A stretch of DNA of 45,441 bases, from contig JAGXNO010000031.1 in assembly GCA_019894975.1 (NCBI GenBank), forward strand, positions 1 through 45,441, written 5' to 3'. The translations under genes and the position numbers were made by a program. This document shows positions 1 to 41,561 of the stretch, piece after piece (the first letter of the stretch is position 1; the number at the start of each line of letters is the position of its first letter). This DNA comes from Promethearchaeota archaeon. Lineage in GTDB: Archaea > Asgardarchaeota > Lokiarchaeia > Sigyniarchaeales > SOKP01. The notes under the pieces are model-generated. The model was not told the origin of the DNA. It saw only the letters and a program-made list of their open reading frames with translations, and ran no database searches.

Positions 1-102
1 ATTAACGGGCTCTTGGTTTTTGCTACTATAATACTTCTTTCAGGAAATTTAGTTGCAGATGTTATGTATACTATTATTGATCCGAGAATAACATACGCAT
101 AA
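1..102 (+). CDS. dppB: 3' end of Dpp/Opp-type ABC permease (DppB-like), partial
   Basis: Frame 1 reads INGLLVFATIILLSGNLVADVMYTIIDPRITYA*, the typical NLxxDxxYxxxDPRI C-terminus of OppB/DppB; directly upstream of a DppC-like gene. Confidence 0.85.
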   Translation: MNGLLVFATIILLSGNLVADVMYTIIDPRITYA

Positions 103-126
103 AATAAAATTGAGAGGTTATTAAAG

Positions 127-1122
127 ATAACAGAACAAACTTTTATAGGGGATATTGCTGATAAACAATCTGAATCACCAACGAAAAAACAATTTTTTCG
201 ATATTTAAGATTTTATTTAATTCTTGGTTGGCGAGACCCTGAGTTCTCTTCTCAAGAATATCAAATAGAAAAAATAAAATCCAAAAGGAAAAGGTTTCGA
301 CGCCTTCTTAGACCTTTAACAATTACAGGATTCGTAATGCTCATATTCATTTTGGTATTAGCAGTATATAGTCCTTGGTTAACTTACATTAAATTAGACG
401 AACTAGTAATACCCTATATTCCTCCTGGAGAAACCCCTTTTGATTCTCCAACAGCGGACCATCCGTTAGGGACAACAAAGTATGGATATGATGTTTTAGC
501 AAGAATTATTTGGGGAAGTAGAACCACAATTTTAATGGCATTAATCCCTGTAACTATCGCAATTGGAGGGGGTCTTATCTTAGGAACGATATCAGCATAT
601 TTTGGTGGCACTGTTGATTATCTTATGATGCGTTTTGTAGATTTAATGTATGCATTTCCAAACTTGGTTCTTGTCATCATAATCGTTCCTATATTGGGAC
701 AAGCGTTATTAACTAGTCTTGTAATTTACGGAATTCTTTTTATACCATATAATATCAGGTTTATGCGATCACTTGTTTTACAAGTAAAGCAACTGGAATT
801 TATTCAAGCAGCAAAAGCAGGTGGTGCGCAAAAATTCAAAGTGATGTTTAAACATATTATACCAAATGCAATTTCTCCTATGATAATAGCTTTTTTTGGA
901 GGAGCAGCGGTTGCTGTATTAGGTCTAGCAGGTCTGGCTTTTATAGGATTTGGAGACCCGACTGTTGCTAGTTGGGGAACTGATATTAACTGGGCTGGAG
1001 CTACATTTAGCAATGTCAATGCTGCTGTTTGGCCTGGATTATTTATAGGAATAACAGCTATAGGATTTATGCTCATAGGAGATGGATTGCGAGATGCATT
1101 AGATCCACGATTAAACATATAA
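127..1122 (+). CDS. dppC: Dpp/Opp-type ABC permease (DppC-like); probable ATA start at 127 (ORF track starts at 337)
   Basis: HPLGT..GYDVLARIIWG, EAA-like loop EFIQAAKAGGA, GDGLRDALDPR terminus. The frame is open upstream of 337 with an OppC N-terminal-like RRLLRPLTITG and an SD-like GAGAGGT at 112-118. Confidence 0.9.
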   Translation: MTEQTFIGDIADKQSESPTKKQFFRYLRFYLILGWRDPEFSSQEYQIEKIKSKRKRFRRLLRPLTITGFVMLIFILVLAVYSPWLTYIKLDELVIPYIPPGETPFDSPTADHPLGTTKYGYDVLARIIWGSRTTILMALIPVTIAIGGGLILGTISAYFGGTVDYLMMRFVDLMYAFPNLVLVIIIVPILGQALLTSLVIYGILFIPYNIRFMRSLVLQVKQLEFIQAAKAGGAQKFKVMFKHIIPNAISPMIIAFFGGAAVAVLGLAGLAFIGFGDPTVASWGTDINWAGATFSNVNAAVWPGLFIGITAIGFMLIGDGLRDALDPRLNI

Positions 1123-1171
1123 AAAAGAGGGATTAAAGGTTTTAACTATATTATATCAAGCATCATATGGA

Positions 1172-3088
1172 TTGAATTATGGAATGGCTTTAATTGAATC
1201 AATTATTTCATTTCTCATTTTACTCTTTATATCAAATTTTATCCATAAACAAATTCCTGAAGAACAAAAAATCTTAAGAAAGCTTCATAGAAAGAGCTCG
1301 CTCGTAATTAGTCTCATAGTTTTTGGCATAATATTTGGTATTAGGGCTCTTCTTGAAACTCTAGGTTCATTTTTTTCCCTTTTTTTAATAATCAATAATG
1401 ATGCTTTAATGTTTGCAATTATGGCAACACTATTTTATTTTCTGTATAAAGAATTGGTGTTTAAACAAGAAACATTTGGAACTATAAGAAAGGAACTTTT
1501 TAGTGGTCCATTTCTAAAAATATTTAGATTATTTTTTATAATATGTTGGATAATTGCCGGTATATTCCTTTCAATTTCTCTCCTAAGAATTAGAATGAAT
1601 AACCCTGATATTTTTAACCTTGGATTTATATGGGCAACATTAGCTATATTATTTGATATGATCATCACAATTATAATAAATACTACTCGTCCAATTGAGA
1701 AACGCATTCCTAAAGAAATTCTTAAATACTCTATGTTTACTGGTGGGCTTATCTCATTTGGTATTTGGTCAATACAACTAATAATCTTTGAATTGTATCT
1801 AAATAGACTGCTTGGATTAATGCTATTCGAACAAGATATTCGTATACTCTTTGGGGTAATTAGTGCTATATATGGCTCAATAGTTTATGTAGCTTTGAAA
1901 AAGATATTTCTACCTGCAGCTGAGGAAAAGAGTCAGTTAAAAGTTCAAAAAGCAACTGAAATAGTTAAAGAGGAATCTGTACAAGATTTTACTTTAGGAG
2001 GGAACCACGCGATTCTTGACGTGAAAGATCTCACTACTTACTTTTATACTGAAGAGGGTACTGTTCGCGCTGTAGAAGGTGTTTCTTTTAAGGTATATGA
2101 AGGAGAAGTTCTTGGTCTTGTGGGTGAAACTGGTTGTGGGAAATCTGTAACTGCATTATCTATTCTTCGTGTTATTCGACCTCCTGGAAAAATTGAGAAA
2201 GGAAATGTTATTTTTAGAGGGGAAAATCTATTAATTAAACCTGAATCTGAAATGTTAAAATATCGTGGTAAAGATATTACAATGATATTTCAAGATCCAC
2301 TCAATTCTCTTAATCCTGTTTTTAGAATAGGTAAACAAATCTCTGAAGTATTTTTATTGCATATGGAGAATGAAATGCTTGCTGAAGCTTCCAAATTTCC
2401 CGATAAAACCATATATGGTGTTGCTCGAGAATGGAGTATAGATCTTTTAAGAGAATTGAATATCCCCTTTCCTCAAGTAATTATTGATCGATACCCTCAT
2501 GAGCTAAGTGGAGGTATGCGACAAAGAGTCCAGATTGCTATAGCTCTTGCATGTAGACCTAAATTATTAATCGCTGACGAACCTACTACTGCTCTAGATG
2601 TCACAATCCAGAACCAGATTCTAAAACTGATGAAAGAACTCGGTAAGAAATATAATACAACTATATTATTTATTACTCACGATCTTGGGATTATCTCTAA
2701 AATGTGTAATCGTGTTGCTGTGATGTATTGTGGCTCCATTGTTGAATATGGAGACATAAAAAAATTATTTACTAAACCTTATCACCCTTACACCAGAGGA
2801 CTTATAGCTTCTGTTCCTGTTATGAGGGAAAGGCAACAAGAACTTGAAGTTATACCTGGAATGGTACCAAATTTAATTTACCCCCCCTTAGGATGTAGAT
2901 TTCATCCTAGATGTCGTTATTGTTTCGAGCCTTGTGATTCAAAAGCCCCAATCCAAATTGAGATTGAATCTGGATATTTTGTAGCGTGTCATCTTTATGA
3001 TCCAGAATATGAAAGTTTAGCTAAAATTTCTATAAAGAAAATCGAAGATATATCAGAAAAATTAGAGGTTATTAATGATCATGGTTGA
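1172..3088 (+). CDS. dppD: DppD/OppD-type ABC ATPase fused to an N-terminal multi-pass membrane domain
   Basis: [28 protein letters not shown]-terminal GCRFHPRC...VACH; first ~260 aa contain several hydrophobic segments. Confidence 0.9.
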
Positions 3089-4823
3089 TTTAAAAGAAAC
3101 TATCATAATTCCCGTTATTTTTTCCATACTAGGATTTTTTATAATGAGAGGTTTTATACGATCAAAGAGATGGGAGAATTCAGTGAATATTGCACTCGTA
3201 ACAAATTCGATTTGGTTGATCTTTAGTCTGATTCGATTTGGTAATTCGATTTTATTGGTCTTCACTTATATCATTACCAATTCTTTCATTGATTCCTATT
3301 TTTTACAGCTTTTAATAAATGCAATACTATTTATACCCATTGGTGTATTAATCTTATGGGGATTTTATAAAAAAGACTTATTCGAGTCATTTACAGTTGC
3401 TAGCCTTGTCCAAGCTGCTATATTGGTAATATCGCTTTTTTTAAGCAATATTCAAAGAATTCTTAAAATCTGGTTAATAGAAGGAAATGATGATTTAGAT
3501 GGTTCTAAATTTACATTTACTTTTGCCCTACTCTTTCTTTTAGGGATATCTATTCTTATAGCTTATTGGGGAGATAAGATACAATTAGTGCGATATAGAA
3601 TAACTTTTGTTCTTAGCAGTATTTTACCTGGGATTTATTATTTAATGACCTCATTTATTACCTTGCATGAAAACTTTCTTAATAATGCTTTTATTAGTAT
3701 TTTTATTAGTTTTATAATTGCGATCATTTCTATTCTTATTGTAAAAATAATTGCTTACCAAACTATAGAGTTCAAAGAACTCAGAGGGTTGACTGTTCTT
3801 GAGAAAGGTAAAGAATTACTAACTGTAAAAGATCTCAAAATACATTATCCGCTTTTTAAGGGAACCCTTAAAAGACAAATTGGACTTGTTAAAGCAGTTA
3901 ATGGGGTCTCATTCAGCATAAAAACCGGTGAAACGCTTGGTTTAGTGGGAGAAAGTGGATGTGGGAAAACAACAATTGCTAAAGGACTTCTAGGTTTGGT
4001 AGAAAAAACAGAAGGAGAGATGTTTTTCGAAGATAAGCTGGTCCCTCCTGAATATACTGCATATTTAAGACATAGAATACAAATGGTTTTCCAAGATCCA
4101 GATGCATCCTTAAATCCACGTATGAAGGTAGTTGACATAATAGCAGAACCACTTAGGAATTTACTTGCTATTACTAATAAACTAGAGATCAGAAGACGCG
4201 TTTTAAGATTGTTAGACGAAGTTTCCTTAAAACGAGAGCATATGGATCGCTATCCTCATGAATTTTCTGGTGGTCAGAAGCAAAGAATTGTTATCGCTAG
4301 AGCATTAGCTTGCAATCCAGAATTGATAATTTTAGATGAACCTACTTCTGCTCTTGATGTATCAGTTCAAGCACAAATTCTTAATCTTCTTAGAAATTTG
4401 CAAGCAACATATGGATATGGATTTCTGTTTATTACTCACAATTTAGCTGTTGTAAACTATATTGCTAATCGTATAGCCGTCATGTATCTTGGGCAAATTG
4501 TCGAAGTTGGAAGTAAAGAACAAGTTTTTACAAAACCAACTCATCCATACACCCAAGCACTTCTTTCTTCACATTCTGACATAGATCCTTACAATCAAGA
4601 GATCAGTTTTGTTATTGAAGGAGAAGTACCAAGCCCTATAGCACCTCCACCGGGATGTACTTTTAATCCACGTTGCTCTTCAGATGCACGCACTAAAGAA
4701 TGTGAACATGATTTACCTCATAAGATAAATATCGAGGAAGGGCATTATATCTGGTGTGTCAATCCTCCTACATCAATGCAATCAGAAAATCAAGAATCTA
4801 AAGAGAGTTTATCCTTAGAATAA
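3075..4823 (+). CDS. dppF: DppF/OppF-type ABC ATPase fused to an N-terminal multi-pass membrane domain
   Basis: GESGCGKT, FSGGQKQR, ILDEPTSALDVSVQAQILNLL, GCTFNPRC; first ~230 aa hydrophobic; overlaps the previous gene. Confidence 0.9.
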   Translation: MIMVDLKETIIIPVIFSILGFFIMRGFIRSKRWENSVNIALVTNSIWLIFSLIRFGNSILLVFTYIITNSFIDSYFLQLLINAILFIPIGVLILWGFYKKDLFESFTVASLVQAAILVISLFLSNIQRILKIWLIEGNDDLDGSKFTFTFALLFLLGISILIAYWGDKIQLVRYRITFVLSSILPGIYYLMTSFITLHENFLNNAFISIFISFIIAIISILIVKIIAYQTIEFKELRGLTVLEKGKELLTVKDLKIHYPLFKGTLKRQIGLVKAVNGVSFSIKTGETLGLVGESGCGKTTIAKGLLGLVEKTEGEMFFEDKLVPPEYTAYLRHRIQMVFQDPDASLNPRMKVVDIIAEPLRNLLAITNKLEIRRRVLRLLDEVSLKREHMDRYPHEFSGGQKQRIVIARALACNPELIILDEPTSALDVSVQAQILNLLRNLQATYGYGFLFITHNLAVVNYIANRIAVMYLGQIVEVGSKEQVFTKPTHPYTQALLSSHSDIDPYNQEISFVIEGEVPSPIAPPPGCTFNPRCSSDARTKECEHDLPHKINIEEGHYIWCVNPPTSMQSENQESKESLSLE

Positions 4824-4947
4824 ACTAGTTCTGAGTTCTTATAGCTTTTTTTCATATATTTTATTGTAAATTTTACACATTTTAAGATTTTCATGATAGA
4901 CTAGTACTTATTAAGAATAGTGATATACTATTACCATAAGATATAAA

Positions 4948-4968
4948 TAAATTTACGTTGTATATTTA
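4948..4968. promoter_or_regulatory. Candidate palindromic operator upstream of GRE1
   Basis: TAAATTTAC-GTT-GTATATTTA, abutting a TATA-like element; similar copies at 7572 and 11282. Confidence 0.5.
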
Positions 4969-4997
4969 AATAACAAAAATAAAAACAGGTAAGAATT

Positions 4998-7427
4998 ATG
5001 GTTGTTCAAGATATTAAAATGGCTGCTCTTCAGGGGATTCCTACAGAGAGGGTTCGAAAAATTAGGGATAAAATGTTGTCTCAACCTTTCGAATATGATC
5101 TTGAGCGAGCTCGATGCTATTCGAGAATTTGGAAACAGATGGAAGATGCTCATCCCCTTATGAAAAAAGCGAAGGCATTAGAGGAATTCTTACACTGCCT
5201 TCCTATAAGGATCGATAGTGATGAGCTTCTTGTTGGAGTAAAATCCAGCAAAATAAGAGCTGATCCATTCGAAATAGAACTCGGAAGGCACGTTCGAACT
5301 TACGATTTTCTCTTAGATGACTCAATAGACGAAGAATCTAAAGATTATTTCCGTAGACATAATCCTATCCTTAGGCGTTATGTTCCTTTTTCAGAGCAAG
5401 AGCTTAACGAGTTAAAAAATGACATTATCCCCGTTTGGAAAGGGAAGACATTAGCTGACCGAAAGAAAGAACTCTGGAAGGAAGCAGGCTTATTAAAAGA
5501 GAAAAAGGGATTTATGGAACGAGCTATGAGCTGGATCAATCCATTTTATGCAGAAATGCAGGGACATACCATTCCGGGTTATAGACGTGTTCTTAAAATA
5601 GGATTTAAAGGAATAGAAAAGAGAACTAGGGGAGAACTAGAGAATCTTAAAGAGAATGATGAGGATTATGAAAATCGCAAGGTATTCTATGAATCAGTTC
5701 AGGTTTGTGCAAAAGCAGTTTGTGATTATTCCAATCGTTATGCAGATCTGGCAGTGGAAATGGCTGAAAACGCATCAGAACATAGAAAAGCAGAACTTTT
5801 AGATATTGCTGAACGGGCAAGACGAGTACCAGCCCTCCCGCCTAGAACATTTATGGAAGCACTTCAATCAGTATGGATGACCAATGTTGTTATGGAAATG
5901 AGTTATGGTGAAGGAAACATATTTTCTCAAGGGCGTGTAGACCAATATCTTTATCCATATTATGCCGCTGATTTAGCCATAGGACGTATTACTTATGGAG
6001 AAGCTTTAGAAGCCATTGAAGAATACTTAGTTAAACTTGCTTCTGTTGTTATTGCAGGACAGAATAATATAACTATTGGGGGATTAGATAAAGATGGAAA
6101 GGATGCTACGAATGACGTATCATACTTGTTTCTCGAAGCAATTGCAAATGTAAAAAGTCTGTTGAATACATTATCGATACGGATCTCTCCCAAAACGCCC
6201 CGAGATTTTGTGAAACGAGTTTGTGAAACGTATCGATTTACTGCAGGAATGGGAATTCATAATGATGAAATTTTAGTACCGCAACTTCAAAAAGATGGTT
6301 ATTCGTTGGAAGATGCTCGAGACTATTCACTTGTAGGGTGTGTAGAACCTCACGGAACTGGAAATGATTTTTCTTATACAGCAGGCAATGGTGTCAGGTT
6401 ATCAATTGTTTTACATTTGGCTTTAAATGAAGGACGGATTCTTGTAGCTGGGAATCGCCAATTTGGTGCAAAAACTCCTGATCCAAGCACTTTTAAAACT
6501 TTTGAAGATGTGAAGCAGGCTTTTGTAGATCAGCTTTCTTTTGGAGTAGACTTAGTTGTGAAAAAGGCAGAGTTAAAAGATCGAGCTTTTGCTGAAGGAT
6601 TTCCCTCCCCATTGCTATCATCTACAATAGAGGGATGTCTAGAGAGTGGAAAAGATGTAACTCGAAATGGAGCGCGCTATAATAACAACCCTATAGGTTG
6701 CCAAGCTTTAGCAACTGTAACTAATTCACTAGCAGCAATTCGCTGGGCAGTATTCGAAAAAAAATTATTAACAATGGGAGAATTAGCTGCACATCTCCGA
6801 AATAATTTCAAAGGAGCAGACAAACTTAAGGAACTATTAAGAAACAAGGCTCCTAAATATGGTAATGGTGATGAAAGGGTAGACGAGTTAGCAAAATGGG
6901 TGGCAAATACTTTATGTGATATTGTGAGAAAACATCCTGCGAGAGGTGGTGCCGGTATATATCGCCCATGTCTTGTATCTTCTGGACTTAATATTCTTGA
7001 GGGTAGAATGTTAGGGGCAACTCCCGATGGAAGATTATCTGGTGAAGCCGTATCTAACGGTATCTCTCCTGCAAACGGGACAGAAAAAAATGGGCTTACT
7101 ATGACGCTCCGATCAGTAGCCTTCGCAACACGTGATGCTCTTCTAACCGATGGAGCAACAATGAATGTAAGAATCACTCCTAGTTTAATAGAAACAGATG
7201 ATGGTATAGATAAATTAACTTCTATAGTAGAAGCTTATTTAGAGTTAGGGGGAAGAGAGCTTCAGATTAATCCAATAAGCTCAGAAACACTAAAAGACGC
7301 ACAAGCTCATCCAGAGAAGTATCCCGACTTATCAGTTAAGGTCACAGGTTACTCCGCTCGGTTCATAGAAGTGGGTAGAAGTCTTCAAAATGACATCATC
7401 GCCCGTACAGTATTTAATGAATTATAA
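4998..7427 (+). CDS. Glycyl radical enzyme (PFL2/glycerol dehydratase-like family), paralog 1
   Basis: 809 aa; Cys loop GCVEP, Gly loop SVKVTGYS, GRVDQYLYPYY, PKYGN, ATPDGR. Confidence 0.92.
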   Translation: MVVQDIKMAALQGIPTERVRKIRDKMLSQPFEYDLERARCYSRIWKQMEDAHPLMKKAKALEEFLHCLPIRIDSDELLVGVKSSKIRADPFEIELGRHVRTYDFLLDDSIDEESKDYFRRHNPILRRYVPFSEQELNELKNDIIPVWKGKTLADRKKELWKEAGLLKEKKGFMERAMSWINPFYAEMQGHTIPGYRRVLKIGFKGIEKRTRGELENLKENDEDYENRKVFYESVQVCAKAVCDYSNRYADLAVEMAENASEHRKAELLDIAERARRVPALPPRTFMEALQSVWMTNVVMEMSYGEGNIFSQGRVDQYLYPYYAADLAIGRITYGEALEAIEEYLVKLASVVIAGQNNITIGGLDKDGKDATNDVSYLFLEAIANVKSLLNTLSIRISPKTPRDFVKRVCETYRFTAGMGIHNDEILVPQLQKDGYSLEDARDYSLVGCVEPHGTGNDFSYTAGNGVRLSIVLHLALNEGRILVAGNRQFGAKTPDPSTFKTFEDVKQAFVDQLSFGVDLVVKKAELKDRAFAEGFPSPLLSSTIEGCLESGKDVTRNGARYNNNPIGCQALATVTNSLAAIRWAVFEKKLLTMGELAAHLRNNFKGADKLKELLRNKAPKYGNGDERVDELAKWVANTLCDIVRKHPARGGAGIYRPCLVSSGLNILEGRMLGATPDGRLSGEAVSNGISPANGTEKNGLTMTLRSVAFATRDALLTDGATMNVRITPSLIETDDGIDKLTSIVEAYLELGGRELQINPISSETLKDAQAHPEKYPDLSVKVTGYSARFIEVGRSLQNDIIARTVFNEL

Positions 7428-7571
7428 AATTTCTTTTAATAATTCCTTTTTTTTAAAATTTTTAAATGGTAAAAAAATAATTTATTATAAAGAATAGCTT
7501 TCTTCTAACTTTTTTGCCACATCATATTATCTTTTTTTTAAGGTTTTTTCTGAATTACAATAATTTATAAA

Positions 7572-7592
7572 TAAATATACAAAGTTAATTTA
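7572..7592. promoter_or_regulatory. Candidate palindromic operator upstream of GRE2
   Basis: TAAATATAC-AAA-GTTAATTTA overlapping TATA-like TTTATAAATA. Confidence 0.45.
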
Positions 7593-7618
7593 AATAATAA
7601 CAAAACAATATATGTATT

Positions 7619-10069
7619 ATGGTAATTCAAGGTATTAAAATGACCCCTCTTCAAGGGATTCCTTCAGAGAGGGTTCGAAAGATTAGAGATAGAATGCTAT
7701 CTATGCCTAGAGAACTTGATATTGAGCGGGCACGGTGTTATACAAGAATATACAAACAAATGGAAGATGCTCCGCCCTGTATACAGAATGTTAAAGCATT
7801 AGAGGAATTCTTACAATGTCTTCCAATAAGGATTGATGAAGATGAACTTCTTGTAGGCGTAAAGTCTAGTAAAATAAGAGCTGACCCAATTGAAATAGAA
7901 CGTGGAATGCGTGCCAATATTTTTGGGTTCATCTTTAATGATTCAATAGATAAAAAAATAAGAGATGGTTTCAGTAAAAGTTTCACGTTTATAAATCGAT
8001 ATGTCCCCTTACCCGAGCAAGAACTTGATGAGTTGAAAAATGAAATTATCCCGTTCTGGAAAGGAAGGACTGTAATGGATCGTAAGTTAGAATACTGGAG
8101 AAAAGCAGGTTTAGCTGAGGAATCAAAGGGCTCTATGGATCTTGCAAGTGCTTTTGGTGTTTCTATGGGGGGAACCGATTTATTTGGATCTGCTGTGGGT
8201 CAAGGACATGTGGTTCCGGGTTATAGACGAGTTCTTAGAATGGGATTTAGAGGAATTGAAAAAATGGCAGAAGAAGGACTTGCGAAACTTAAGGAGACAG
8301 ATGAAAATTATGACCATCGCAAGGATTTTTATGAATCAGTCGTAGTGGCAGCAAGAGCGGTCTGTGATTATTCCAATCGCTATACTGATCTCGCAATGGA
8401 AATGGCGGAAAATGCACCAGAAACAAGAAAGGCTGAACTTTTAGATATTGCTGAACGTACAAGACGAGTTCCCGCCCTCCCACCCAGAACATTCATGGAA
8501 GCACTTCAATCTGTATGGATGACTAATGTCGTTATGGAAATGAGCTATGGTGAAGGAAATATATTTTCACAGGGACGAGTAGATCAGTATCTTTACCCAT
8601 ATTATGCCGCTGATTTAGCCGAAGGACGTATTATTTATGAGGAAGCTTTAGAGGCAATTGAGGAATATTTAGTTAAACTTGCTTCAGTTGTTATCGCAGG
8701 CCAAAATAATGTAACTATTGGGGGATTAGATAAGGATGGAAATGATGCCACAAATGATGTGTCTTATATGTTTCTCGAGGCTATTGCAAATGTAAAAAGT
8801 CTGTTGAATACGTTATCGATACGAATTTCTTCTAAGTCACCTCGTGATTTTATGAATAGAACTATTGAAGCTTTTAAATATACCGCCGGAATGGGAATTC
8901 ATAATGATGAAGTTTTAGTACCGCAGCTTCATAATACAGGATATTCATTAGAAGATGCCCGAGATTATTCACTCGTAGGGTGTGTAGAACCAACGGGTAC
9001 AGGAAATGATTTCTCTTATACAGCAGGTAATGCCATTCAGATTTCAATCCTTCTTAACATGGCATTAAATGAAGGACGTACTATTTTATCAGGAAATCGA
9101 ACTGTTGGGGCAAAAACACCCCCAGCTAAGAGTTTTAAATCTTTTGAAGATGTGAAGAAAGCTTATGTAGACCAGCTTAAATTTGCTATAGATCTTGTTG
9201 TGAAAAAGGCTGAGTTAAAGGATAAAGCATTTGCTGATTATCTACCTTCCCCATTGCTTTCATCTACCATAGAAGGATGTCTCGAAAGCGGAATGGATGC
9301 AACTCGAAATGGAGCTAAATATAATAATAACCCTATGGGTTCACAAGGAATAGCAACTGTAACTAATTCCTTAGCAGCAATTCGCTGGGCAGTATTTGAA
9401 GAAAAATTATTGACAATGGAAGAATTAGTTAACCATATGAACAATAATTTCAGGGGAGCAGAAGAACTTCGAGAAAAATTACGAAATAAAGCTCCTAAAT
9501 ATGGTAATGGTGATGAGCGAACAGATGACATAGCAAAATGGATTGCAACTACCCTATGTGATCTTACAAGAAAATATAAAGCGAGAGGTGGTGATGGCAT
9601 ATATCATAATTGCCTCGTATCTGCTGGAACTCAGATTAGAGAGGGTAAAGGATTAGGGGCAACTGCAGATGGAAGATTATTAGGTGAACCCGTGGCAAAC
9701 GGTATTTCTCCTGCAAATGGTACAGAAAAGAATGGGCTTACCATGGCACTACGATCAGTAGCTTATGCTACAGGTGAACCTCATTTAACTAATGGAGCGT
9801 CAATGAACATAAGAATTAATCCCAGCTTAATACAGACAGAAGAAGGAGTCGATCAATTAGCTTCTATAGTAGAGGCTTATTTAGAGTTGAGAGGACGAGA
9901 GCTTCAGATTAATCCAATAAGTTCAGAAATATTGAGAGACGCACAAGCTCATCCAGAAAATTATTCTGACCTATCAGTTAAGGTCACAGGTTACTCCGCT
10001 CGATTCATAGATATCACGAAAGAGCTTCAAGATGATCTTATCGACAGAACCGTGTTCAGTGAATTATAA
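7619..10069 (+). CDS. Glycyl radical enzyme (PFL2/glycerol dehydratase-like family), paralog 2
   Basis: 816 aa; GCVEP, SVKVTGYS; long stretches identical to paralog 1. Confidence 0.92.
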   Translation: MVIQGIKMTPLQGIPSERVRKIRDRMLSMPRELDIERARCYTRIYKQMEDAPPCIQNVKALEEFLQCLPIRIDEDELLVGVKSSKIRADPIEIERGMRANIFGFIFNDSIDKKIRDGFSKSFTFINRYVPLPEQELDELKNEIIPFWKGRTVMDRKLEYWRKAGLAEESKGSMDLASAFGVSMGGTDLFGSAVGQGHVVPGYRRVLRMGFRGIEKMAEEGLAKLKETDENYDHRKDFYESVVVAARAVCDYSNRYTDLAMEMAENAPETRKAELLDIAERTRRVPALPPRTFMEALQSVWMTNVVMEMSYGEGNIFSQGRVDQYLYPYYAADLAEGRIIYEEALEAIEEYLVKLASVVIAGQNNVTIGGLDKDGNDATNDVSYMFLEAIANVKSLLNTLSIRISSKSPRDFMNRTIEAFKYTAGMGIHNDEVLVPQLHNTGYSLEDARDYSLVGCVEPTGTGNDFSYTAGNAIQISILLNMALNEGRTILSGNRTVGAKTPPAKSFKSFEDVKKAYVDQLKFAIDLVVKKAELKDKAFADYLPSPLLSSTIEGCLESGMDATRNGAKYNNNPMGSQGIATVTNSLAAIRWAVFEEKLLTMEELVNHMNNNFRGAEELREKLRNKAPKYGNGDERTDDIAKWIATTLCDLTRKYKARGGDGIYHNCLVSAGTQIREGKGLGATADGRLLGEPVANGISPANGTEKNGLTMALRSVAYATGEPHLTNGASMNIRINPSLIQTEEGVDQLASIVEAYLELRGRELQINPISSEILRDAQAHPENYSDLSVKVTGYSARFIDITKELQDDLIDRTVFSEL

Positions 10070-10095
10070 ACTATATTTAAAATTTAATGGTTAAG

Positions 10096-10107
10096 TTTTT
10101 TTTTTTT
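10096..10107 (+). terminator. Oligo-T (T12) archaeal-type terminator candidate
   Basis: T12 run beginning 27 nt after the GRE2 stop. Confidence 0.4.
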
Positions 10108-10262
10108 ATAAATTTTACAATTTTTATTTTCCCTCCATAGCTTAAATCTTTAAAAACTCTTACATAAGTTTATATCATTGTTTAAGATGTGATATCAATA
10201 TTTGTATATAACAATAAAGAATTTTATTATTTAGGACGATATAGGAAATTTTTTTTTTCTAA

Positions 10263-11207
10263 TTAACGAGTTAAACCAGACCACTTAACGTTTTTAACCC
10301 CAGTACTTTTAGCAATTTCAAGAAAATTTTCCATCTCCTCTTTTGTCATTAATCGTTCATCTTTTAAAGGCCATGTCATACCTAATCTTGAATATTTTAT
10401 TTCGCAGAGTTTATTAAAGCTTAATATATCCCATTGATCAGGAATATTATTTAATTCATTTACGATGAATTCTCCAATTCCTTTAACATTCTCTTCTGTG
10501 GCAGTATAGTTTGGTATTATTGGTGTCCTTATCCACATTATTTTTCCATTTTCTTTGACATAACGTGAAATCCATTTAGCATTTTCTAAAATTGTTCTAT
10601 TTGAAACGCCTGTATATTCTTCATGTTTTTTAGGATCAATAACCTTTATATCTAAAAGGACAATATCAAGGTAGGGTAATAAATCTTGATAAACTTTTTT
10701 ACTTGAATACCCACATGTATCTAAAGCAGTAGAAATGTCATTTTCCTTACATAATTTTAATAATTGTAAGAGAAAATCTGGTTGTAATGTAGGTTCACCA
10801 CCAGAAACGGTTATACCTCCTTTCGTTTTATCAAAAAATATTTTTTCTTTCTCTATTTCATGAAAAAGAACTTCCAAATCCCACCACTCCCCAAACATAG
10901 TTAATGCTGTACTGGGACAGGCTTCTACACAATCTCCGCAACTGTTACATTTCTCTCTGTTAATATGTAAACCATCTTCTTCAAAAAATAAAACATCCTC
11001 TTGGCAAGCATCTATACAACTCCTACAATCTATACATTTACGCATTATCCATTGAAGTTGAGGTTTTCTTGGAATTGATTCTGGATTATGACACCAAACG
11101 CAATTTAAGAGACAATAATTAAAAAAAATTGTTGTACGAACACCAGGACCATCATCTGTAGCCATTCTCTCAATTTTAAAGATTAAACCTTTAGATTTTG
11201 ACTCTAT
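10263..11207 (-). CDS. Glycyl-radical enzyme activating enzyme (radical SAM with ferredoxin-like insert); probable ATA start at 11207
   Basis: DGPGVRT, CLLNCVWCHNPES (CxxxCxxC), two CxxCxxCxxxC motifs, SGGEP, DTCG. The conserved KGLIFxIxR N-terminus lies upstream of the annotated ATG at 11165. Confidence 0.92.
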   Translation of the reverse strand: MESKSKGLIFKIERMATDDGPGVRTTIFFNYCLLNCVWCHNPESIPRKPQLQWIMRKCIDCRSCIDACQEDVLFFEEDGLHINREKCNSCGDCVEACPSTALTMFGEWWDLEVLFHEIEKEKIFFDKTKGGITVSGGEPTLQPDFLLQLLKLCKENDISTALDTCGYSSKKVYQDLLPYLDIVLLDIKVIDPKKHEEYTGVSNRTILENAKWISRYVKENGKIMWIRTPIIPNYTATEENVKGIGEFIVNELNNIPDQWDILSFNKLCEIKYSRLGMTWPLKDERLMTKEEMENFLEIAKSTGVKNVKWSGLTR

Positions 11208-11281
11208 AATACACCACCATCTTAACTTCTAAAATCCATTTAAAACAATATACAAAAAGTACTTGAAGAACAAAATATTTT

Positions 11282-11302
11282 TAAATTTATTGTGTAAATT
11301 TA
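11282..11302. promoter_or_regulatory. Candidate palindromic operator between activase and tetR
   Basis: TAAATTTAT-TGT-GTAAATTTA (arms extend to TTTAAATTTA/TAAATTTAAA). Confidence 0.5.
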
Positions 11303-11320
11303 AACTCATTTTTATTTTCT

Positions 11321-12064
11321 GTGTTATCAATGATTAATGAAAAAAGCATTTCGGATGGGAAAAAAAAAACAAGAAGTAGGTCACCTGAGAAGAAAGCTCA
11401 ACAATTTGATGAAATTATAGAAGTAGGGAAGCAATTGTTTCAAGAGCAAGGACAAGAGGGTTTTTCACTACGTGGATTAGCAAATAAATTAAATATGAGC
11501 CAAAATAATCTCTATAATTATGTAGAAAGTAAACGAGAACTATGGATTGCGATAAGGAAGAAGTTTTATGAACAATATCGGAATGAAAACCGTGATATCA
11601 TTAAGAATTTCGACGGTTCAACTGTTGATTTATTATTAAACATTTTTAATCACTTTTTTGAATTTGCAGAAAAAGATTATGCTGCTTTTCGAATGATGCA
11701 TATTATCCGATCTCCTGTGTCCGATAAAAAAGGGGCATTTGAAAAAGAATATAAACCATTTAGCTATCTAGATGGGACTACTCGTGTGATTCAAAAAGCA
11801 ATTGATATTGGGGAAATCAAAGAAACAAATGCGCCATTAATCTCGTTCTTTATGTTTAGTCTATTACTGGGTGCTACTATGGTGGAATACGTCATGCGGG
11901 ATATCGAAGAAGCCAATGATGAAAAGGGAAAGGAAATAGAGGAATTTATTCAATTTAGATCCCAAAATTTCACAAGCAAGGAATTTCGGAAATATGTATT
12001 AAGGAAAATCGAAAAAGGATTAACTGATCCTAATTTAGTAATAGATGAATCTGAATATAAATAA
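11321..12064 (+). CDS. TetR/AcrR family transcriptional regulator
   Basis: IIEVGKQLFQEQG.EGFSLRGLANKLNMSQNNLYNYVESKREL, a TetR HTH. Confidence 0.88.
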   Translation: MLSMINEKSISDGKKKTRSRSPEKKAQQFDEIIEVGKQLFQEQGQEGFSLRGLANKLNMSQNNLYNYVESKRELWIAIRKKFYEQYRNENRDIIKNFDGSTVDLLLNIFNHFFEFAEKDYAAFRMMHIIRSPVSDKKGAFEKEYKPFSYLDGTTRVIQKAIDIGEIKETNAPLISFFMFSLLLGATMVEYVMRDIEEANDEKGKEIEEFIQFRSQNFTSKEFRKYVLRKIEKGLTDPNLVIDESEYK

Positions 12065-40319: not shown

Positions 40320-41561
40320 ATGGTTACCATGCCCTCAGATAATTCAGAAATTATAAAGGTCGTTTCCAAATTTTTAGACCCTAAATCAGTAAAAATTGAT
40401 AAACTAGAGAAGATTGAAGATATTTTAAAATTACCAATTCAATCATACAAATTTTTAGATAAAGAAGAATCAACGATTATAAAAAATCTATTTGAAGTTT
40501 CAAAAATAAACGAAATATTAAAATTAGACAAGGAAGATCCGTTTCAAAGTTTAACAATATTAGAAGAATCAGAAGAATCTTTAGAAATAACCGAGAATTT
40601 AAAGGAAAAAATCGAAGCGTTAAAGAACAAGTATCCAACTTTAGAGACTAAATTAATAAAAGCGGTGACAATCAGCGCTCTTATAGAAAGTATTTCCAAA
40701 GAAAAAGAAGCTATTGAAACTCAAGCGCAAAAAGTGTTAGTAGCCGGATTAGACGCTGCAGGTAAAACCTCGCTATTATCAAAATTTGGAGGGCGTTTAG
40801 GGATAAGTGATATGATTGCCACTCACCCCACTAAAGGAGTGGTAAGGATGAAATTTGGGACTTCTAATCTATCACTATTTATTTGGGACCTTGGGGGCCA
40901 AGAAGAGTATCGAGAAAGATACTTAAATAATCCAGAACAATATTTTGTTCAATTAGACCTATTGATATATGTTATAGATATTCAAGATTCAGAAAGATTT
41001 GAAGAATCTTTAGATTATCTTGATAGTATTCTTAATTCATTAGTTATGTTAGAAGAAAGACCCTACGTACTATTATTCATTCATAAGTATGATCCTGATT
41101 TGAAAGGGGATCCCAAGATACTTTTGAATATCGAGCTGGTGAAAGATAACATAGGCGAACTTCTAAGAAGTAAGAAATATGATTTTGAAGTTGAAATATA
41201 TTTAACTTCTATTTATTCTTTAATATCTCGCGAACCACAATTTGCAAAGTACATAAAAAAATTAATGAGTGCAGGTTACTCTCTTTCAGATCCAACAGTA
41301 AAGAAGGTAGAAGGATTGGGAAAAACCTTAGAAGAAACTCTTAATGCAATTATTCGTTTATCTGAGAGTATATCTTCACAACTTAATGATCTTGATGCCC
41401 GCCTCCGTGCTATCGAATCAGGAGCATTCCAAGCAGCACAAGGTGGACAGCCACTTGAAATTTCTAATCCCTCTTTAAGTAGAAGTGGGGAGGGTTCAAG
41501 ATTGACAGTTCTTAATGAATTAAAAGATTTATTTAGTAAAAGAAAGAGCTTAGATTTTTAA
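40320..41561 (+). CDS. Arf-like small GTPase with N-terminal extension and C-terminal coiled coil
   Basis: GLDAAGKT, PTKG, WDLGGQ, HKYD, TSI. Confidence 0.88.
   Translation: MVTMPSDNSEIIKVVSKFLDPKSVKIDKLEKIEDILKLPIQSYKFLDKEESTIIKNLFEVSKINEILKLDKEDPFQSLTILEESEESLEITENLKEKIEALKNKYPTLETKLIKAVTISALIESISKEKEAIETQAQKVLVAGLDAAGKTSLLSKFGGRLGISDMIATHPTKGVVRMKFGTSNLSLFIWDLGGQEEYRERYLNNPEQYFVQLDLLIYVIDIQDSERFEESLDYLDSILNSLVMLEERPYVLLFIHKYDPDLKGDPKILLNIELVKDNIGELLRSKKYDFEVEIYLTSIYSLISREPQFAKYIKKLMSAGYSLSDPTVKKVEGLGKTLEETLNAIIRLSESISSQLNDLDARLRAIESGAFQAAQGGQPLEISNPSLSRSGEGSRLTVLNELKDLFSKRKSLDF

Follow-up and report, generated by a model that had tools for sequence, protein, structure and literature searches.

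Glycyl radical enzymes (GREs) of the 1,2-eliminase type, such as glycerol dehydratase (GD; 1R8W/1R9D), choline trimethylamine-lyase CutC (5FAU, 9F3W) and hydroxyproline dehydratase HypD (6VXC), combine a full-length PFL-like barrel with a glycyl radical domain, carry a single catalytic cysteine in a Cys-x-Glu (CXE) loop and have a dedicated ferredoxin-type radical-SAM activase, and in bacterial GRE eliminase loci one activase serves the GREs beside a local regulator and an uptake system. All PFL-like GREs of known function are bacterial, and the archaeal clades have been described as an open gap (2026 review; PMC13450708). The CXE motif is kept by all 1,2-eliminases and GRE isomerases, among which two cysteines occur only in pyruvate formate-lyase (PFL), and the radical glycine lies in the fingerprint RVxG[FWY]x6-8[FL]x4Qx2[IV]x2R (PMC13450708). 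In Hermod-, Loki- and Heimdallarchaeota, GREs have been labelled alkyl-/benzylsuccinate synthases (Ass/Bss) on the basis of 29-33% identity, a single cysteine and the extra clusters of the activase (PMC8163825), and a paper on archaeal microcompartments has GREs only in its reference list (PMC12747264). Here we analyze a 45,441-nt stretch of DNA from a Promethearchaeota archaeon (contig JAGXNO010000031.1, C100 below, positions 1-45441, referred to as the window), in which the genes of an ABC importer are followed by two GREs (GRE1 and GRE2), a GRE activase and a divergent TetR-family regulator. We consider it rather likely that this accessory island directs the inducible uptake and radical 1,2-elimination of a hydroxylated solute. 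The first-pass annotation had called the pathway undescribed; we found no description of this cluster in the literature, and the qualification needed is that Asgard GREs have been mentioned, as putative Ass/Bss enzymes (PMC8163825).

Both GREs match the PFL-like domain (PF02901, 519 and 529 bits) and the glycyl radical domain (PF01228, 82 and 77 bits), and both deserve the label of unassigned GREs given to them at first, missing every NCBIfam equivalog cut-off by more than half. Their highest-scoring PDB matches, CutC (435 bits), GD (412 bits) and HypD (383 bits), are only 33-40% identical; weaker matches include Archaeoglobus PflD (2F3O, 348 bits), PflD, YbiW and HplG (290-322 bits), and TutD and MasD are matched only in part, from residue ~231 (222-223 bits). 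Residue conservation, read from a 49-sequence alignment of the clade to which GRE1 and GRE2 belong, revealed that C448, E450 and H190 (GRE1 numbering) are invariant (49/49), as is the radical glycine G784 in all 48 sequences covering it. The cysteine loop of GRE1 reads G447-C448-V-E450-P, its CXE motif being aligned with that of CutC, with C433/E435 of GD and with C434/E436 of HypD, and H190 falls at the position of GD H164 and HypD H160, where CutC has Asp216. Given the distribution of the CXE motif (PMC13450708), the two enzymes are to be placed among the eliminases and isomerases of the superfamily.

The similarity to characterized eliminases does not extend to the residues that set their specificity. 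At the position of GD H281 and HypD D278 GRE1 has N307, at that of GD S282 it has I308 and at that of GD D447 it has A462, and the pocket loop (residues 350-362, VVIAGQNN(I/V)TIGG) falls short of its counterparts in CutC, GD and HypD by ~10-13 residues and is without the capping aromatics CutC F389/F395, GD Y339 and HypD F340. We take GD H164, H281, S282, D447 and the Tyr339 loop to be substrate-binding residues, and assume corresponding roles for the residues of CutC and HypD. The pocket is thus unlike that of any characterized member, and probably larger. Each enzyme with a familiar name was rejected in turn: PFL, as there is a single cysteine in the GCVEP loop instead of two adjacent ones (TIGR01255, 121-126 bits for a cut-off of 994); GD, as the H164 equivalent is the only one kept, H281, S282 and D447 being replaced and the Tyr339 loop shortened; CutC, with His190 in place of Asp216 (TIGR04394, 443-445 bits for 1050); and HypD, with D278 replaced by N307 and the Phe340 loop deleted (NF043068, 475-486 bits for 1100). 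The HpsG model scored 458-478 bits for a cut-off of 1000. The activase matches TIGR02494 above its cut-off (293.6 bits for 174) and carries C18-x3-C22-x2-C25 together with two ferredoxin-type CX2CX2CX3C motifs; its best NCBIfam equivalog is the HypD activase, again below the cut-off (283 bits for 425).

GRE1 and GRE2 are 73% identical in protein and 77-79% in DNA, and since the similarity includes ~55 nt upstream of the genes, they represent a tandem duplication that kept the promoter. In a FastTree phylogeny of the clade the two fall into different, well-supported orthologous groups, and GRE2 is, to judge from this tree, an old paralog of GRE1. The GRE2 group includes the single GRE of clusters described below as type B, and the GRE1 group the last copy of four-gene arrays as well as lone copies between uvrB and uvrA. 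Differences between the paralogs occur at positions 187, 452 (H452T, in the Cys loop) and 465 and in the strand 656-671, which aligns with GD 636-649, including Tyr640, presumably an active-site residue. From these differences we infer that the two enzymes act on related but different substrates.

Several parts of the island share a rare 21-bp palindrome. The pattern TAAATWTAY-N3-GTWWATTTA has three matches in the window (O1, O2 and O3) compared to 0.02 expected and four in the 3.9-Mb genome compared to none for the reversed control, and a search with TAAATTTAC-N3-GTAAATTTA at up to two mismatches returned the same four sites genome-wide, with one for the reversed pattern. The palindrome noticed in the first reading is therefore real and far beyond chance. 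The fourth site, a perfect copy, is on another contig, C107 (148-168), 60 nt before the gene of a solute-binding protein, and none of the four lies outside the island, where GRE1, GRE2, tetR and the binding-protein gene each have one upstream. In ~1.15 Mb of related loci nearly all matches precede the starts of a GRE (by 26-30 nt), a binding protein (49-74 nt) or tetR (19-28 nt). Because the promoters of GRE1 and GRE2 are duplicates, the GRE2 promoter region being a diverged copy (76%) of the GRE1 one, O1 and O2 are not independent; the copies before tetR and the binding-protein gene are. The proposed connection between the GRE and activase/tetR promoters thus stands for the GREs and tetR; the activase start lies 117 nt from O3, the tetR-proximal site.

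An archaeal TATA box lies ~26 nt upstream of the transcription start. Across 26 aligned GRE promoters a conserved tATAAA abuts the left arm of the palindrome and AATAATAA follows the right arm, an arrangement in which the palindrome would cover the interval from TATA box to start site. T-runs are found downstream of oppF, GRE1 and GRE2. As each GRE has its own promoter, operator and T-run, GRE1 and GRE2 are probably transcribed separately from each other and do not extend the opp operon; the co-directional order of importer genes and GREs was read correctly at the outset.

The regulator has an N-terminal TetR helix-turn-helix domain (PF00440, 32 bits for a cut-off of 24, residues 32-77) and matches 37 TetR structures in the PDB, the best of them (E 6e-10) a structure of unnamed function. 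TetR orthologs of at least 68% identity occur in 10 of 60 relatives, nine of which carry the GRE clade, the relatives being related genomes and not independent samples, and in Thor/Hermod-type clusters, where the fetched locus has no TetR, no palindrome match was found at up to three mismatches. These observations support TetR as the presumed repressor that binds the palindrome, with a regulon confined to the island. As in known TetR repressors with palindromic operators, the gene is divergent, autoregulation is probable and the target promoters carry a 9+3+9 bp inverted repeat; different here are the archaeal promoter context, with the operator running from a TATA-like box to the presumed start site, and a ligand domain unlike that of any characterized TetR.

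The importer has all the parts of an Opp/Dpp/Nik-type system, namely a family-5 binding protein, two BPD_transp_1 permeases and two ABC_tran + oligo_HPY ATPases, and the full set is present in L102, a relative with 93% GRE identity, where oppB (338 aa) lies directly upstream of oppC. The upstream solute-binding protein was identified on C107 (228-2396) as a 723-aa SBP_bac_5 (family-5) protein (93 bits) that has both a signal peptide and, for sorting, a Loki-CTERM domain. A PDB sequence search with it gave one weak partial match only, and its AlphaFold2 model (13-sequence alignment; mean pLDDT 59, pTM 0.50) was too poor for fold comparison. ABC importers normally do not have membrane-embedded ATPase subunits beside two permeases. 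Here OppD begins with an extension of ~280 aa containing roughly 7-8 hydrophobic segments by hydropathy (window 1172-2011), and OppF with a multi-transmembrane extension of ~245 aa (window 3075-3800) that is 45-65% conserved in relatives. For the OppD extension 201 homologs were found, those with a taxon name being almost exclusively from Asgard archaea, and neither extension gave a Pfam match or a usable ESM Atlas match.

That importer and GREs belong together had been proposed by adjacency only; to this are now added the shared operator and conserved synteny. In 36 related loci of at least 12 kb, many of them cut by contig ends such that all counts are lower bounds, the families co-occurring with a GRE were the activase (24 loci), OppD/F (16), TetR (14), OppC (12), OppB (11) and the binding protein (10). 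At least three gene orders (type A, that of the window; type B, Loki_b31-like; and the rearranged L096 and L098) keep the binding protein, oppBCDF, GRE(s) and activase in one cluster, down to a GRE identity of ~70% and a binding-protein identity of ~46%. The exceptions are a lone GRE in G023:C7 and the Thor/Hermod clusters, which have no adjacent importer. The contrary outcome, importer and GREs unlinked in relatives and without co-regulation, did not occur.

Homologs of the GREs form two sharply separated groups, one at 65-100% identity, all from Asgard metagenome-assembled genomes (MAGs) where named, and then one at no more than 60%; the next group, at 50-55% identity, includes bacteria, e.g. 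Actinomycetota. Across the clade loci the GREs occur as arrays of one to four tandem copies. Four tandem GREs behind one transporter and before one activase were seen in L037/L038 (G023:C26) and L039/L040 (G036:C13), where the clade has thus expanded markedly.

Sister clusters give a view of the chemistry downstream of the GRE. Type-B clusters have the order <binding protein U180> oppBCDF> GRE> <activase <AOR <Fe-ADH tetR>, in which a tungsten-type aldehyde:ferredoxin oxidoreductase (AOR) and an iron alcohol dehydrogenase (Fe-ADH) lie between activase and tetR, and Thor/Hermod clusters contain zinc alcohol dehydrogenases, a COesterase-family carboxylesterase and a ~800-aa GGSGGG protein. AOR and ADH neighbors are what one would expect beside a GRE whose aldehyde product is subsequently oxidized and reduced, and the carboxylesterase is a hint that in some lineages the substrate may be freed from an ester; the island of the genome studied here has enzymes of neither kind. 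The GGSGGG protein belongs to a family (U796, 600-800 aa, with a beta-rich C-terminus) found beside the GRE in L084, L086, L087, L094, L098 and L051:15507-17339; apart from a marginal feruloyl-esterase match (E 0.44) it has no Pfam, NCBIfam or PDB match, and release of the GRE substrate by an esterase activity is one possible role. An equation of U796 with a 950-aa protein beside a paralogous transporter on contig C102 was rejected, the two being unrelated. The neighborhoods of bacterial out-group GREs (50-59% identity) revealed no transporter and no informative pathway; they feature recurring regulators and alpha/beta hydrolases, one of them also containing two homologs of the Fe-S protein described below.

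Compared to bacterial GRE eliminase loci, the island and its sisters share the single activase, the local regulator, the uptake system and, in the sister clusters, an aldehyde oxidoreductase with alcohol dehydrogenases, but none of the loci examined was seen to contain genes for a microcompartment shell, the sister clusters have a tungsten-type AOR as aldehyde oxidizer in place of a CoA-acylating dehydrogenase, uptake relies on an Opp/Dpp-type system with membrane-domain ATPases, and the GREs form tandem arrays. With the Asgard 'Ass/Bss' GREs (PMC8163825) and Archaeoglobus PflD (2F3O) the GREs studied here have in common an archaeal PFL-like enzyme with a single cysteine and a ferredoxin-type activase; they differ in being closer to eliminases than to TutD/MasD, in having CXE plus His and an importer, and in lacking small subunits. 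Three things are unusual: a GRE clade restricted to Asgard archaea and with a remodeled pocket, a defined archaeal operator presumably bound by TetR, and an importer whose ATPases are anchored in the membrane.

In the mechanism that we favor, a surface-anchored family-5 binding protein and an Opp/Dpp-type importer (OppBC with membrane-extended OppD/F) would take up a polar organic solute, on which, or on two close variants of which, the two paralogous GREs would act after a single radical-SAM activase has installed the glycyl radical in both. The Cys448 thiyl radical would abstract a hydrogen atom from the substrate, Glu450 with His190 would deprotonate a substrate hydroxyl, and the neighboring C-O, C-N or C-S bond would break, the 1,2-elimination giving a carbonyl product, most likely an aldehyde. 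In the absence of substrate, a TetR dimer on the palindrome would shut off GRE1, GRE2, tetR and the binding-protein operon. Gene content, synteny, the distribution of the operator, motif conservation and the insertion site are direct observations; repression by TetR, elimination chemistry, release of an aldehyde and a substrate bigger than C2-C3 diols are inferred, the last from a pocket loop shortened by ~10-13 residues without capping aromatics and from the presence of an ABC importer, with its 723-aa binding protein, devoted to the pathway.

Several observations weigh against this proposal. The island itself has no aldehyde-handling enzyme, the AOR/ADH evidence coming from sister clusters; the pairing of TetR with the palindrome follows from co-occurrence only; an operator is missing from the oppBCDF promoter and present only at the divergent promoter of the binding-protein gene; and the binding protein, almost without similarity to solved structures, does not name the substrate. 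The glycyl region of GRE1, KVTGY-SARFIE-V-GRSL-Q-ND-I-IA-R, keeps Gly784, Gln, Ile and Arg, but KVTGY stands against the published RVxG[FWY], with K781 in 47 of 49 clade members, and V (GRE1) or I (GRE2) against [FL]. As CXE also occurs in GRE isomerases, a ring-opening isomerization stays compatible with the sequence. The enzymes would then open the ring of an imported cyclic polyol, sugar or amino acid, like YbiW/PflD and HplG, with no leaving group. The substrates of YbiW/PflD are anhydro-sugar phosphates, and archaeal family-5 binding proteins often carry sugars. The PDB matches to PflD, YbiW and HplG would fit, as would the motif (PMC13450708), but these scores (290-322 bits) are below those of CutC, GD and HypD (383-435 bits), and an AOR with alcohol dehydrogenases in sister clusters suits an aldehyde product, which leaves ring opening an unlikely reading with some footing in the data. 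That the importer brings in hydroxyproline peptides or N-methyl-hydroxyprolines, which the GREs dehydrate like HypD, HpyG (8id1) and HpzG (8iof), seems to us quite improbable: HypD is indeed the best NCBIfam equivalog for GRE1 (486 bits), its activase likewise (283 bits), all three dehydratases are among the PDB matches and the transporter is of the Opp/Dpp type, but both scores miss their cut-offs, that of the GRE by more than half, the Asp278 and Phe340 features of HypD are gone, no pyrroline-5-carboxylate reductase was seen in the loci examined, and a pyrroline product would be at odds with AOR/ADH neighbors.

A general peptide or nickel importer might instead merely adjoin a small-diol (glycerol/propanediol-type) GRE dehydratase with which it shares no substrate. 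The best NCBIfam names for the permease and ATPases are oligopeptide/nickel systems, the missing oppBCDF operator would agree, and some clade members have no adjacent transporter (the lone GRE of G023:C7, the Thor/Hermod clusters); yet importer and GREs stay linked in rearranged and diverged clusters, a copy of the same rare operator lies before the binding-protein gene, and H281, S282, D447 and the Y339 loop of GD are not conserved, which makes a chance neighborhood very unlikely. We give the least credence of all to hydrocarbon activation by an alkyl-/benzylsuccinate synthase (X-succinate synthase), the role proposed for Asgard GREs (PMC8163825). The traits used for that label recur here, including the two extra Cys motifs of the island activase, but most non-PFL GREs have a single cysteine and a ferredoxin-type activase, the matches to TutD and MasD cover only part of the protein and score 222-223 bits against 383-435 bits for the eliminases, and the invariant CXE and His are eliminase/isomerase features. 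No gene for a small accessory subunit (beta/gamma) lies beside the GREs, whose flanks have no open reading frames (ORFs) of at least 40 aa except antisense ones, and a binding-protein-dependent importer with AOR/ADH neighbors is ill-suited to hydrocarbons. The evidence thus points away from an X-succinate synthase for the clade studied here, with which the proteins of PMC8163825 were not compared.

Uptake coupled to radical 1,2-elimination remains the reading that we prefer, and a bolder form of it, which we hold tentatively, is that the clade runs an undescribed GRE reaction on a larger substrate (glycoside-, polyol- or peptide-like, from sediment organic matter), fed by a new Asgard-typical importer with membrane-domain ATPases, the tandem paralogs widening the range. 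If so, it would provide the first functional assignment of an archaeal PFL-like GRE. If the eliminase reading is true, some of what is presumed to be hydrocarbon metabolism in Loki-type archaea would instead be fermentation of imported polar compounds. Three experimental routes lead to the substrate: the ligands of the binding protein, the ligands of TetR, and the 21-bp operator in reporter or gel-shift assays.

The layout of importer genes, two GREs, activase and divergent TetR given by the first-pass annotation was borne out by the ORF listing and domain scans (Table 1).

Table 1. Features of the GRE island within the window
Feature	Position	Strand	Basis or remark
oppB 3' end (permease), last 33 codons	1-99	+	matches the last 32 OppB residues of relatives at 94%
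oppC permease (BPD_transp_1)	103-1122; first canonical start 337	+	Pfam, NCBIfam, comparison with L102
OppD-type ATPase (ABC_tran + oligo_HPY)	1172-3088	+	Pfam domains from residue 302 onward
OppF-type ATPase (ABC_tran + oligo_HPY)	3075-4823	+	Pfam, NCBIfam, hydropathy
Operator O1, TAAATTTACGTTGTATATTTA	4948-4968		ends 29 nt before GRE1 ATG; left arm abuts TATAAA box
GRE1, 809 aa	4998-7427	+	PFL-like and Gly_radical domains
Operator O2, TAAATATACAAAGTTAATTTA	7572-7592		ends 26 nt before GRE2 ATG
GRE2, 816 aa	7619-10069	+	PFL-like and Gly_radical domains
GRE activase (radical SAM)	10263-11165	-	TIGR02494
Operator O3, TAAATTTATTGTGTAAATTTA	11282-11302		18 nt before tetR start, 117 nt before activase start
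TetR-family regulator	11321-12064	+	TetR_N (PF00440) and PDB TetR matches

As the left edge of the window is a contig end, the island is cut there, and the description 'self-contained' holds only in part: importer, GREs, activase and TetR are together, but the binding protein, an Fe-S protein and a crotonase are off-window, and the island has no enzyme for the presumed aldehyde product. The missing part is on C107, which encodes the 723-aa binding protein and then the 381-aa Fe-S protein, with the crotonase and uvrB on the opposite strand. Aligned to L102, C107 has its left end ~28 nt upstream of oppB, and the first OppB residue encoded in the window is 306; C107 and C100 therefore abut across a gap of ~0.95 kb holding most of oppB. 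The long-contig relatives (G002:C3, G025:C65 and L102) show the complete order, uvrB> crotonase> <Fe-S protein <binding protein oppB> oppC> oppD> oppF> GRE1> GRE2> <activase tetR> uvrA> aIF5B>, and in the window, too, uvrA and then aIF5B follow tetR (ORF listing, Pfam/NCBIfam scans). By contrast, uvrB, uvrA and aIF5B lie side by side in four genomes of the same genus in which no member of the GRE clade was found; the whole ~20-kb block is therefore an accessory insertion between uvrB and uvrA. A single GRE1-type gene with its operator, lacking transporter, activase and TetR, lies between uvrB and uvrA in L035/L036 (G023:C7), L054, L058 and L090, and the junction seems to be a recurrent insertion site.

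An Asgard origin of the DNA is borne out by orthologs of at least ~68% identity, all from Promethearchaeota or other Asgard MAGs, with further support from the Loki-CTERM signal on the binding protein and from an Arf / Gtr1-RagA-like small GTPase (window 40320-41561, 413 aa, with an N-terminal extension of ~130 aa), a eukaryote-signature type of protein typical of Asgard archaea.

The Fe-S protein (C107:2593-3735) belongs to a large uncharacterized family with 1029 representatives at E <=1e-10. It consists of a winged-helix-like N-terminus, a Cys-rich middle (FICNCC.CCC-type in the family consensus) and a 2x[4Fe-4S] domain; 14 of 65 family members match the TrmB winged-helix family at the N-terminus. 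Foldseek comparison of its model (pLDDT 84) with the PDB returned only the ferredoxin domain and weak winged-helix matches, and the ESM Atlas only unnamed Fe-S clusters. A regulatory function is conceivable, as is electron transfer to the activase. At least 15 paralogs occur in the genome, several of them next to crotonase / enoyl-CoA hydratase paralogs (e.g. C175, C121, C87, C123).

Some further features of the locus and genome were observed. The oppC frame is open from 103, with 78 conserved N-terminal codons before the first ATG at 337, which lies inside the first membrane helix; at the start position the window has TTA (GAGAGG-TTA-TTA-AAG) where L102 has ATG (GAGAGG-ATG-TTG-AAG), and the 76 codons past it are in frame and conserved, an oddity whose possible explanations are initiation at a non-canonical codon, truncation of the protein and an error in the sequence. 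The paralogous transporter on C102 (L105:8267-13267, minus strand) has the same ATPase extensions, its OppD being 1062 aa long with ~740 aa before the ATPase domain. The genome has five GRE genes in all (on C159, C98 and C128 and two in the window) and a second GRE activase at C84 65129-66028, 62% identical to that of the island. The uvrB gene on C107 (5110-8709, minus strand; a 1200-aa frame) is split by an intein with LAGLIDADG homing-endonuclease and HTH_3 domains; UvrB tblastn matches in relatives span only ~570-640 residues, which suggests that some relatives have a uvrB without the intein.

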